A stretch of DNA of 64,000 nucleotides from a virus: the IMG/VR virus record IMGVR_UViG_3300038463_000227, positions 7,920 to 71,919 of that record. One strand, 5' to 3'. Below, piece by piece: positions 27,797 through 28,009 of this stretch (position 1 is the stretch's first letter; each line of letters opens with the position of its first letter). The translations under genes and the position numbers were made by a program. Under the pieces are notes generated by a model that saw only the letters and a list, made by a program, of their open reading frames with translations, was not told the origin of the DNA and searched no databases.

Positions 27797-27828
27797 AAAA
27801 TAAAAGGGACCTAATCATTAGGTCCCTT
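27797..27828 (-). terminator. Intrinsic terminator (candidate attenuator) upstream of the tRNA array
   Basis: AAGGGACCTAA-TGA-TTAGGTCCCTT followed by TTATTTT. Confidence 0.85.
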
Positions 27829-27851
27829 ATCATAAAATGCACAATAGCAGT

Positions 27852-27941
27852 TTATTCAAAAGGACACTTCTTTCCAGGGAGTATTGACCCGCCCGCTAAT
27901 AGCGATGGATAATATGATAAGGCGGAAATCGAAGCGGACAT
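27852..27941 (-). CDS. Candidate attenuator leader peptide MSASISALSYYPSLLAGGSILPGKKCPFE
   Basis: Between late promoter (27978-27985) and terminator; 3' end overlaps an antiterminator; weak SD. Confidence 0.65.
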   Translation of the reverse strand: MSASISALSYYPSLLAGGSILPGKKCPFE

Positions 27942-28009
27942 AAATTTGTCTTTTAAGTTAATAAGTTAATCGTGTTATATTTATAGAAAATAAAAAATTT
28001 TTGAAATTT

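Follow-up and report, generated by a model that had tools for sequence, protein, structure and literature searches.

The question raised by this locus is why a short, GC-richer open reading frame (ORF) should lie between a promoter-like motif and an intrinsic terminator, with a long array of tRNA genes downstream on the same strand. The window analysed here is a 64,000-nucleotide stretch of virus record IMGVR_UViG_3300038463_000227 (positions 7,920 to 71,919), the features of which are collected in Table 1. An initial annotation had interpreted the locus as an attenuator, in which a ribosome stalling on a depleted tRNA switches on the array. Taken alone, the window left the question open; homologous and analogous loci lent the interpretation in silico support. 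We consider it probable that the entry of transcription from the TATAAATA promoter into the tRNA array is controlled by a leader-peptide (ribosome-mediated) attenuator. The basis of this reading is sequence anatomy, recurrence, amino-acid match and pairing potential, and from these we infer the remaining steps, i.e., translation of the leader, termination, read-through and the trigger for each.

Table 1. Positions of the features discussed, numbered from the first nucleotide of the window
Feature	Position	Strand	Details
TATAAATA promoter-like motif	27978..27985	minus	17 copies in window, 14/17 on coding (minus) strand
Leader ORF MSASISALSYYPSLLAGGSILPGKKCPFE	27852..27941	minus	29 codons plus TAA stop
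Proposed sensing zone, codons 2-20	27882..27938	minus	S, A, I, L, Y, P and G only; 19/19 in-set
Antiterminator 5' arm GUCCUUU	27859..27865	minus	within codons 26-28
Inner hairpin AUAAA.UGC / GCA.UUUAU	27832..27855	minus	spans stop codon; present in both states
Intrinsic terminator hairpin	27804..27828	minus	11 pairs, 5 G-C, loop 3, tail TTATTTTATA
Terminator 5' arm AAGGGACCUAA	27828-27818	minus	27828-27822 doubles as antiterminator 3' arm
Terminator U-tract (TTTTATTTTAT)	27793..27803	minus	
Sigma-70-like promoter candidates (n = 2)	27738..27711 and 27695..27667 (extended-10 TG)	minus	between terminator and array
First tRNA-like gene, Val-like (GAC)	27395..27468	minus	ARAGORN and Rfam (46.8 bits); 8-nt anticodon loop
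tRNA array	1542..27468	minus	26 ARAGORN calls, all 26 on minus strand

The principal elements described by the initial annotation were all recovered in place, namely the late promoter motif, the 29-codon ORF with its higher GC content (0.43-0.49 over 27820-27939, against 0.14-0.31 in the flanks) and the intrinsic terminator separating that ORF from the tRNA array. The motif TATAAATA, which we take to be the T4 late-promoter consensus, was expected 9.2 +/- 3.0 times on both strands together, and only 1 of 100 shuffles reached the number of copies observed. The upstream gene ends at 28010, 25 nt ahead of the motif. Beyond the leader stop codon, the terminator hairpin begins after 23 nt and has a predicted stability of -15.4 kcal/mol. 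The Shine-Dalgarno sequence was rightly described as weak, since its duplex was estimated at -0.9 kcal/mol, compared with a median of -4.2 kcal/mol among 61 genes, 82% of which had a stronger one. Short identical contigs from four other runs, covering 27300-28800, contained no variants of the leader.

A relic tRNA or structured RNA was considered as the source of the GC-richer patch, and rejected. An Rfam scan of 12000-40000 (E up to 1) returned 31 matches, none of them, to a T-box or any other family, within 27797-27985, while ARAGORN and Rfam together identified no tRNA in the patch. The patch is not a hidden structured RNA, therefore, because it belongs to no Rfam family and folds no better than shuffled sequence (z = 0.04; 100 of 200 shuffles folded equally well).

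The array of the window provides tRNAs for A, G, I, L, M, P, Q, R, S, T and Y, plus a tRNA with a CUA anticodon. Its first tRNA-like gene, 384 nt past the leader stop and on the same strand, had been taken for a tRNA-Val; this did not hold, as its enlarged anticodon loop was read by ARAGORN as a four-base anticodon, and no canonical tRNA-Val was called by ARAGORN in the array. The claim that the first 23 codons are limited to amino acids served by the array was borne out, with codons 2-23 being in-set (i.e., specifying such an amino acid) in 22 of 22 cases. Of the 2,206 ORF variants with 25 codons or more in the six frames of the window, only the leader achieved this; a score of 21/22 was reached by five variants from three places. 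The tail of the leader was in-set at only 4 of 9 codons, against every codon of the sensing zone. Thr, Gln and Arg are absent despite having tRNAs in the array, so that the leader covers 8 of 11 amino acids. A further claim, that individual codons match the array anticodons, did not hold as worded: 20 of 28 codons matched by strict wobble, which is what phage codon usage would predict (P = 0.58).

In total, 11 leader/terminator units were identified in 9 records of uncultured jumbo phages. These were the window unit, L209 (G021), L003 (G001), L005 (G002/G003), L207 (G007), L211 (G022), L213 (G014), L205 and L206 (both G005), and L222 and L221 (both G017). In each, a promoter precedes a short ORF, the end of which pairs with the 5' arm of the strong hairpin that follows, and a tRNA array lies 233-712 nt downstream. 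The motif TATAAATA itself was present upstream of 5 of the 11 leaders (window, L003, L209, L211 and L213). The gene preceding L003 is encoded on the other strand, and the unit is therefore not merely the end of an operon. L211 and both G017 leaders were chosen via a composition filter, and L213 by eye.

Relatives were reached with an alignment of 20 PurA-like homologues; the PurA-like protein as a lone query found no match in viral contigs. A PurA-like protein with 81% identity pointed to a closer relative. Direct searches with the locus were similarly unproductive. The DNA of 27300-28400 had no match in cultured phages, an exact 20-nt piece of the leader had none in viral contigs, and the 120-aa upstream protein had no relative in viral contigs, cultured phages or metagenome contigs, and only its own cluster in a protein collection. 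A terminator-only pattern recovered at least 120 generic terminators and was of no use as a marker. The ORF-end pattern common to the window and L209 was found in viral contigs on the contig of L209 only; in metagenome contigs it gave at least 118 matches, and none of those listed was accompanied by promoter motif, terminator and tRNAs. Leader peptides of L206 and L207 yielded only noise against cultured phages (tblastn, E = 9), and the L205 unit only tRNA matches (blastn).

Co-variation of leader content with the downstream array in related phages had been proposed as a check, and it was found: leader amino acids tracked the array set in all 10 units with a complete array. Compared with windows of the phages' own proteins, the in-set fraction was significantly elevated for the window unit (p = 0.014) and for the other nine units (p = 0, 0.0007, 0, 0.003, 0.012, 0.018, 0.0009, 0.0002 and 0.004), although the values for L211, L213 and the G017 leaders need correction for the roughly 10-40 ORFs inspected per region; L003 was left out because its array is cut by the contig end. 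In 7 of 10 leaders, every amino acid of the array was present. The near-complete genomes G005 and G017 each possess two arrays with different amino-acid sets, and each array has its own matching leader. When the two leaders of G005 were scored for amino acids exclusive to array 1 or array 2, the contrast within the genome was highly significant (25, 1 and 9, 19; Fisher p = 6.3e-7), as was the same contrast for G017 (24, 8 and 8, 39; p = 3.8e-7). Across units, in-set codons made up 232 of 243 in sensing zones and 86 of 117 in tails (p = 5.8e-9). The match is confined to those codons at which stalling would keep the ribosome off the antiterminator arm.

The correspondence was with amino acids rather than codons, since codon choice beyond amino-acid identity was not enriched for array anticodons (all P > 0.26). 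A cross-genome test, asking whether each leader was matched best by its own array, was dropped as confounded by set size; just half of the representative leaders (3 of 6) behaved in this way, since small sets are contained within larger ones from other phages. TAA is the stop codon of all 11 leaders, although its share among the gene stops of these phages is only 14-74% (joint P = 8e-5). Together with a constraint acting at the amino-acid level, the uniform stop provides indirect signs that the leaders may be translated. Among class-1 leaders, Cys was confined to the two with a tRNA-Cys in the array, and Val was missing only from that of the window, whose Val tRNA is aberrant.

The mutually exclusive pairing noted for the window exists, in that GUCCUUU (27865-27859) is complementary to AAGGGAC (27828-27822). 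The first of these arms lies 5-11 nt ahead of the stop codon, and a terminating ribosome would therefore cover it. When folding of the nascent RNA was modelled, the antiterminator was predicted with a probability of 0.93-0.98 while the ribosomal A-site was at or before codon 20, and with a probability of 0 once the A-site was at codon 23. At equilibrium, the terminator prevailed with or without the ribosome (P = 0.91 and 0.90), the antiterminator state being 5 kcal/mol less stable (-16.0 vs. -21.0 kcal/mol). Any switch must be kinetic, therefore, as the terminator wins at equilibrium whether a ribosome is present or absent. The window's antiterminator duplex was not above chance when compared with shuffles (p = 0.25).

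Lack of a conserved antiterminator at homologous loci had been named as an observation that would count against the attenuator; the pairing proved significant for the class, not for the window alone. With the 3' arm held open, the terminator 5' arm paired with the last codons of the ORF in 11 of 11 units. Against dinucleotide shuffles, the median p was 0.04 for the leaders and 0.595 for 19 ordinary gene-end terminators taken from these phages as controls (Mann-Whitney, 5e-5), and Fisher's combined p was 1.5e-8 and 0.78 respectively. The arm sequences vary between units while their complementarity is kept, and the clearest switches are those of L221 (12-bp arm) and L211 (10-bp arm). A loose 'nascent fold' criterion was satisfied by 11 of the 19 control terminators also. 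As in the window, the terminator state was invariably the more stable (11 of 11 units), with margins of 2.8-21.4 kcal/mol.

If the attenuator reading is correct, a transcript would start some 30 nt ahead of the ATG, and the 29-codon leader would be translated by a ribosome as RNA polymerase moves ahead. Codons 2-20 would require Ser, Ala, Ile, Leu, Tyr, Pro and Gly, all of them supplied by array tRNAs. Were these read quickly, the ribosome would arrive at the last codons and TAA and cover GUCCUUU, leaving the AAGGGAC segment free; the terminator would form and transcription would end at the U-tract (approximately 27797). Were any in-set tRNA scarce, the ribosome would stall upstream, GUCCUUU would pair with the emerging AAGGGAC, and the terminator would come too late to prevent the polymerase from continuing into the array. 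The phage, then, probably reads into its tRNA genes only when ribosomes are short of those tRNAs, and the outcome would be a homeostatic supply of the whole set, polled amino acid by amino acid. Possible causes of shortage are a mismatch in codon usage, host shut-off, or host defences that cut tRNAs; a link between the unit and host tRNases is offered as an idea only.

Between the window's terminator and the first tRNA there are about 330 nt containing sigma-70-like candidates. The annotation had placed separate early promoters here; two candidates were identified, and the region as a whole showed no enrichment (10 promoter-like sites vs. 8.8 expected). L209 and L005 have analogous promoter-like repeats after the terminator. 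The candidates would give unregulated, probably early, expression, and the attenuator could control only part of array expression.

Four other explanations were weighed against attenuation. The first accepts that the class is real, and proposes that the copy in the window has decayed, retaining its ORF and terminator as a plain terminator that now insulates the array from late transcription upstream. The feeble Shine-Dalgarno sequence is consistent with decay, particularly as the closest homologue, L209, has AAAGAGG in this position, and so are the chance-level antiterminator, the incomplete coverage of the array's amino acids and the aberrant first tRNA. However, the ORF is intact and unique in its in-set content, its arm-to-stop geometry is the same as in its homologues and its TAA stop is retained, and decay is considered unlikely.

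It is likewise improbable that the ORF senses translation but has another output, such as Rho-dependent polarity, RNA processing or stability at the hairpin, or a general gauging of ribosome speed rather than of particular tRNAs. U-rich tracts follow the hairpins of the window, L209, L005, L211, L213, L222 and L221, and in every unit the hairpin 5' arm and an arm of the alternative helix overlap, as transcription attenuation would predict; yet L205, L206 and L207 have GUGGUAUCUG or GUCGUUUCUGG after the hairpin in place of a good U-tract, and this, along with the invariably greater stability of the terminator state and codons that are not tuned to anticodons, would suit a different output. Nor would a general speed gauge need a composition tailored to the set of each array.

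A stand-alone micropeptide gene with an ordinary terminator, and only an incidental match to the array, seems very unlikely. Promoter motif, ORF and terminator do constitute a complete gene, and short, uncharged peptides rich in Ser, Ala, Leu and Gly could be membrane-active, but conservation of the peptide is limited to its composition. Of the 15 class-1 leader-peptide pairs, most were no more alike than shuffles, and a candidate conserved motif (Y..SP..LAG.S) was dropped on that account. The leaders of L206, L211, L213, L221 and L222 are polar and quite different, and again mirror their own arrays, while the constraint on composition stops where the RNA arm starts. A fortuitous ORF, lying in GC-richer sequence that separates the upstream operon's end from its terminator, as the proximity of the upstream gene to the motif, the unenriched promoter-like sites and the window's antiterminator p value would allow, is disfavoured and scarcely credible given a layout that recurs in nine phage records with diverged sequence, first rank among the ORF variants, a TAA stop in every leader, and an L003 unit that stands alone after a divergent gene.

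Multivalent leader-peptide attenuators are known, such as thr (Thr and Ile) and ilvGMEDA (Ile, Leu and Val), and others regulate trp, his, leu and phe. In the trp attenuator, which is under kinetic control, the terminator has a stability of about -20 kcal/mol and the antiterminator about -12 kcal/mol. The phage units resemble these enterobacterial systems in combining a short leader ORF, rich in regulatory codons, with an intrinsic terminator, in having a mutually exclusive upstream pairing with its 5' arm at the place occupied by a terminating ribosome, and in the greater stability of the terminator. They differ in that tRNA genes, rather than biosynthetic enzymes, are found downstream, in having promoter-like sites between terminator and genes, and in polling 6 to 16 amino acids, each represented by one or a few codons, where enterobacterial leaders contain runs of one to three. 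In the phage units we found no equivalent of a 'region 1' to impose termination in the absence of translation. T-box riboswitches, which control synthetase or amino-acid genes, bear a likeness in sensing the state of a tRNA and choosing between terminator and antiterminator; these bind one uncharged tRNA directly, without a ribosome.

A long accessory tRNA array that is induced under translational stress is also known from the trn operon of Anabaena sp. PCC 7120 (PMC8421152, PMC10272220). As described there, it resembles the phage arrays in being an accessory array, its expression rising when translation is impaired; its control involves the RHH repressor TrcR as well as direct repeats spanning the -10 box and start site, and it has neither leader ORF nor terminator switch, and it resides on a cyanobacterial megaplasmid, not in a phage. 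Within the main text of PMC8421152, 'leader' and words beginning 'attenuat' do not occur.

Our literature search turned up nothing, for phages or for bacteria, on tRNA genes being controlled by leader peptides or attenuators. In silico evidence supports the reading of the phage unit as leader-peptide attenuation; if true, control of tRNA genes would be a first among known ribosome-mediated attenuators, and so would the polling of more than three amino acids. The purpose of phage tRNA genes is debated, the proposals being that they match codon usage, make up for tRNAs lost by the host, or evade defences that cut tRNAs. An array switched on by its own limiting tRNAs would represent supply regulated by demand, and would offer a direct read-out of the tRNAs that limit translation during infection. 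As a small, self-contained element, the unit could be tested in reporters or defined cell-free systems, and might become a tool for reporting shortage of a chosen tRNA.

Such leaders were not found at the arrays of G009, G015, G019, G020, G010, G011 and G018, at the second (Gly/Met) block of G014 (the genome of L213), or at five unrelated loci, including cultured Xanthomonas phage Xoo-sp13. Loci failing the leader screen were L214, L215, L216, L217, L218, L067, L066, L219, L163 and L079, as well as L224, L226, L227, L228, L229, L230 and L231; the screen considered ATG (or longest ATG/GTG/TTG) ORFs of at least 18-20 codons, and may have produced false negatives. We lean towards an arrangement in which a group of giant phages holds its tRNA genes in blocks, each under a polyvalent 'roster' attenuator whose tiny ORF would list the amino acids of that block one or a few times apiece, such that any one shortage would open the block and sufficiency would close it. 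This would explain why tRNA genes are sorted into amino-acid blocks in some giant phages. Where two blocks occur in one genome, their sets differ to varying degrees: the arrays of G005 share D, M, Q and T, and those of G017, KAITNV and PQYEDHFLGSRCWM, are fully complementary.

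The window's leader locus was interpreted in the initial annotation as a ribosome-mediated attenuator: stalling on a short leader ORF would free the ORF end to pair with the 5' arm of a terminator, and so permit read-through into a tRNA array. This interpretation is supported in silico by 11 recurring units and by leaders matched to their arrays. The window locus by itself was a fair guess, and no more. Its claimed parts and their order (promoter motif, 29-codon ORF, terminator, tRNA array) were confirmed on the minus strand, and are listed with other features of the region in the table. 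The source is a 71.9-kb viral contig with completeness rated at 20%, and therefore a giant-phage fragment; the minus strand carries the tmRNA, each of the 26 tRNA genes and all but two of the 41 ORFs of at least 150 aa. The array comprises 26 ARAGORN calls extending down to 1542 (minus strand), and its first tRNA-like gene starts 384 nt after the leader stop. The ORF was indeed GC-richer than its flanks (0.43–0.49 against 0.14–0.31). This patch folded no better than shuffles (z = 0.04), so a tRNA or another structured RNA concealed in it was rejected; nor was there any Rfam family match at E up to 1. The TATAAATA motif occurred 17 times in the window, 14 of these on the coding strand; the expectation for the two strands together was 9.2. 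Two caveats also held: there were two sigma-70-like promoter candidates between terminator and array, and the Shine-Dalgarno sequence was weak (-0.9 kcal/mol, where the median of 61 genes is -4.2).

Features of the window at the leader locus, in the tRNA array and nearby
Feature	Position	Strand	Basis or remark
Promoter-like motif TATAAATA	27985-27978	minus	sequence motif
Leader ORF, 29 codons, MSASISALSYYPSLLAGGSILPGKKCPFE, stop TAA	27941-27852	minus	ORF scan
Small hairpin spanning leader stop codon		minus	fold
Terminator hairpin, 11 bp, tail TTATTTTATA	27828-27804	minus	terminator scan
Val-like tRNA (GAC), first array gene, 8-nt anticodon loop	27395-27468	minus	ARAGORN: four-base anticodon
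tRNA-like elements	16126-16251, 20343-20412, 21115-21188, 25737-25804, 26676-26766	minus	Rfam only, without ARAGORN call
304-aa ORF within tRNA array	23170-24084	minus	TATAAATA upstream at 24113-24106
CUA-anticodon tRNA, amber-suppressor type	1542-1619	minus	ARAGORN label 'Pyl'
PurA-like adenylosuccinate synthetase	28792-30081	minus	Pfam PF00709, 1.5e-34
Permuted tmRNA, phage-encoded	37552-37997	minus	Rfam RF04321, 96.3 bits

The leader had been said to encode, up to codon 23, only amino acids with a tRNA in the array (hereafter 'in-set'). This was correct for 22/22 of codons 2–23, and no other ORF among 2,206 variants (at least 25 codons, six frames) did the same; over the whole peptide the in-set share was 0.82 (p = 0.014 relative to windows of proteins from this phage). 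The supposed match of codons to anticodons was real in that 20 of 28 codons were readable by the array, but codon usage alone predicted 19.7 (P = 0.58). Similarly, the proposed antiterminator (GUCCUUU/AAGGGAC) could form at -16.0 kcal/mol, but the terminator state was at -21.0 and dinucleotide-shuffled upstream sequence paired no worse (p = 0.25). When the locus was folded at equilibrium with and without a ribosome, the terminator formed in either case.

Relatives were reached with the PurA-like protein encoded nearby: an alignment of 20 of its homologues returned 80 viral-contig loci at 32–50% identity; several of these share the permuted tmRNA and the CUA-anticodon tRNA with the window. Their tRNA genes were mapped along whole records, array starts were fetched and the region before the first tRNA was inspected. 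The same order of parts was found in 11 units from nine phage records. In each, a promoter-like motif precedes a short ORF whose end pairs with a strong hairpin's 5' arm; the first tRNA of an array on the same strand follows 233–712 nt further on. Six units are homologous and form class 1 (the window, L209, L003, L005, L205 and L207), with arrays centred on Val/Tyr/Ala/Pro/Gly/Leu/Ser/Thr/Met. The other five leaders are unrelated: L206 (the second array of phage G005, which also carries L205), L211, L213, and L222 and L221 (both arrays of phage G017). TATAAATA preceded five of the 11 leaders (window, L003, L209, L211, L213), variants of it occurred in L005, L205, L206 and L207, and G017 had sigma-70-like promoters instead. 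In L003 the upstream gene is on the opposite strand, so the unit is not merely an operon tail. Better Shine-Dalgarno sequences than the window's were present in L209 (AAAGAGG), L003 (GAGGA), L211 (GAAGGA), and L222 and L221 (AGGA, AAGG); in L213 the motif lay 5 nt ahead of the ATG. By the filters used, no such leader was found before the arrays of seven phage records (G009, G015, G019, G020, G010, G011, G018), before the second block of G014 (the source of L213), or in five unrelated loci including cultured Xanthomonas phage Xoo-sp13; the element is not universal among phage tRNA arrays. G010 and G011 arrange their tRNA genes in groups for one amino acid each, with runs of seven Leu and four Glu, and no leader matching these was found.

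Leader content was compared with the amino-acid set of the following array, as called by ARAGORN within the fetched stretches, using windows of the same phage's proteins as reference. The five Rfam-only elements were left out of the window's set, and L003 was uninformative because its array is cut by the contig end. Besides the window, in-set content was elevated in L209 (0 of 1,648 protein windows as high), L005 (p = 0.0007), L205 (0 of 1,951), L206 (p = 0.003) and L207 (p = 0.012), and also in L211 (p = 0.018), L222 (p = 0.0002) and L221 (p = 0.004), which were picked by a composition filter, and L213 (p = 0.0009), picked by eye, p values to be read with some 10–40 ORFs per region. At the amino-acid level, the co-variation that the initial annotation proposed as a check was observed. 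Seven of ten leaders covered their array's amino acids completely, among them L206 (13/13), L211 (15/15), L213 (16/16) and L221 (14/14). Two near-complete giant phages, each with two arrays, provided internal contrasts. G005 (94% complete) has V Q L A P S G Y T M and an odd Asp in one array and K F E I D M N R W C H Q T in the other, with leaders MYATSVTVGYTSSPVLGGTSPALALPLELTLS and MNTARMINTNRFWQQRQTFDRACEMKHEIDTKGTPQVGGSTETL respectively (2x2 [[25,1],[9,19]], p = 6.3e-7). G017 (100% complete) divides the twenty amino acids into K A I T N V and P Q Y E D H F L G S R C W M, with leaders MFVTIKTNTIKTNAVAINANLQRGVLTEEKKVI and MRHSSIQHQWHQQSILCGMGSLRLGSFQLDPRSYEHTQPFVTGSTKIM (2x2 [[24,8],[8,39]], p = 3.8e-7). 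The sets are fully complementary in G017, while D, M, Q and T are common to both in G005; as the partition differs between the two phages, a match of 'hydrophobic against polar' peptides was ruled out. A functional peptide would conserve sequence, but class 1 peptides were mostly alike only at shuffle level while their content followed the arrays, as expected of a codon roster. Cys occurred only in the two class 1 leaders whose arrays have tRNA-Cys, and the window leader was the only one of class 1 to lack Val, whose array begins with the Val-like tRNA.

With the terminator 3' arm held open, its 5' arm paired with the last ORF codons in all 11 units; this loose criterion is weak alone, because 11 of 19 ordinary gene-end terminators of these phages satisfied it. 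Stronger evidence came from duplex energies, with a median shuffle p of 0.04 for leaders (six reaching 0.05 or less) against 0.595 for the 19 controls (two reaching 0.05 or less; Mann-Whitney 5e-5; Fisher combined 1.5e-8 against 0.78). The arms remained complementary though their sequence varied (CCCGGGU/ACCCGGG, GACCCUC/GAGGGUC, GCCCUUCGUG/CACGAAGGGC, GGGGUUUU/AAAGCCCC, CAGCCUUUUGUG/CACAAAAGGCUG). The terminator was favoured in every unit, by 2.8–21.4 kcal/mol, so the choice would have to be kinetic rather than one of equilibrium; in the trp attenuator, the terminator is likewise the stabler state. In modelled nascent RNA of the window, the antiterminator was predicted at P 0.93–0.98 with the ribosomal A-site at or before codon 20, and at P 0 once it had reached codon 23. 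Across the ten units with complete arrays taken together, 232 of 243 arm-free stall codons were in-set against 86 of 117 tail codons (p = 5.8e-9). The window itself had 19/19 and 4/9; its out-of-set KKC.FE thus stands where the model expects it. TAA, never TAG, is the stop codon of all 11 leaders, although only 14–74% of genes in these phages stop at TAA (joint P = 8e-5). This preference would be a bias at the level of translation, sensible in phages with CUA-anticodon tRNAs. A clear U-tract was missing after the hairpins of L205 (approximately 2255–2300, plus strand), L206 (approximately 2560–2600, plus) and L207 (minus), which have GAAA-type loops and conserved GUGGUAUCUG (or GUCGUUUCUGG) in its place; rather than terminating intrinsically, these may serve as processing sites or depend on a factor.

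On these sequence comparisons, the attenuator model probably holds for the window locus. Any shortage of charged tRNA would trigger such a device; a link to host tRNA-cutting defences is conjectural. The logic resembles leader-peptide attenuation, most closely the multivalent thr and ilvGMEDA leaders; unlike these, the phage units would act on tRNA genes, and they span 6–16 amino acids. A full-text literature search produced no account of leader-peptide attenuation of tRNA genes. The closest published case found was the trn array of Anabaena, where translational stress brings about induction by way of promoter repeats and the repressor TrcR rather than a leader ORF (PMC8421152, PMC10272220).

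Several other features were recorded. Relatives have a canonical tRNA-Val at the position of the window's Val-like gene, which may be decayed or a frameshift-type decoder. CUA-anticodon tRNAs also occurred in L004, L005, L010, L011, L013, L021, L022, L210, L212 and L223, sometimes beside a tmRNA gene, and tmRNA in L003, L007, L010, L011 and L013. The 304-aa ORF had no Pfam family at E <= 0.01, although by eye its N-terminus looks GIY-YIG-like. The nearest cultured-phage homologues of the PurA-like protein, annotated as PurA or PurZ-like, were at most 36.9% identical; 5,015 of 8,000 candidates scored were homologues at E <= 1e-30, several of the best on contigs of 285–375 kb. In L209 (17900–18200, minus) and L005 (20500–20700, plus), the interval from terminator to first tRNA contains two or three tandem sigma-70-like promoter repeats (TTGTACAA...TATAAT type); some 150 nt of GC-richer sequence follows these repeats, and window positions 27580–27660 are similar to it.
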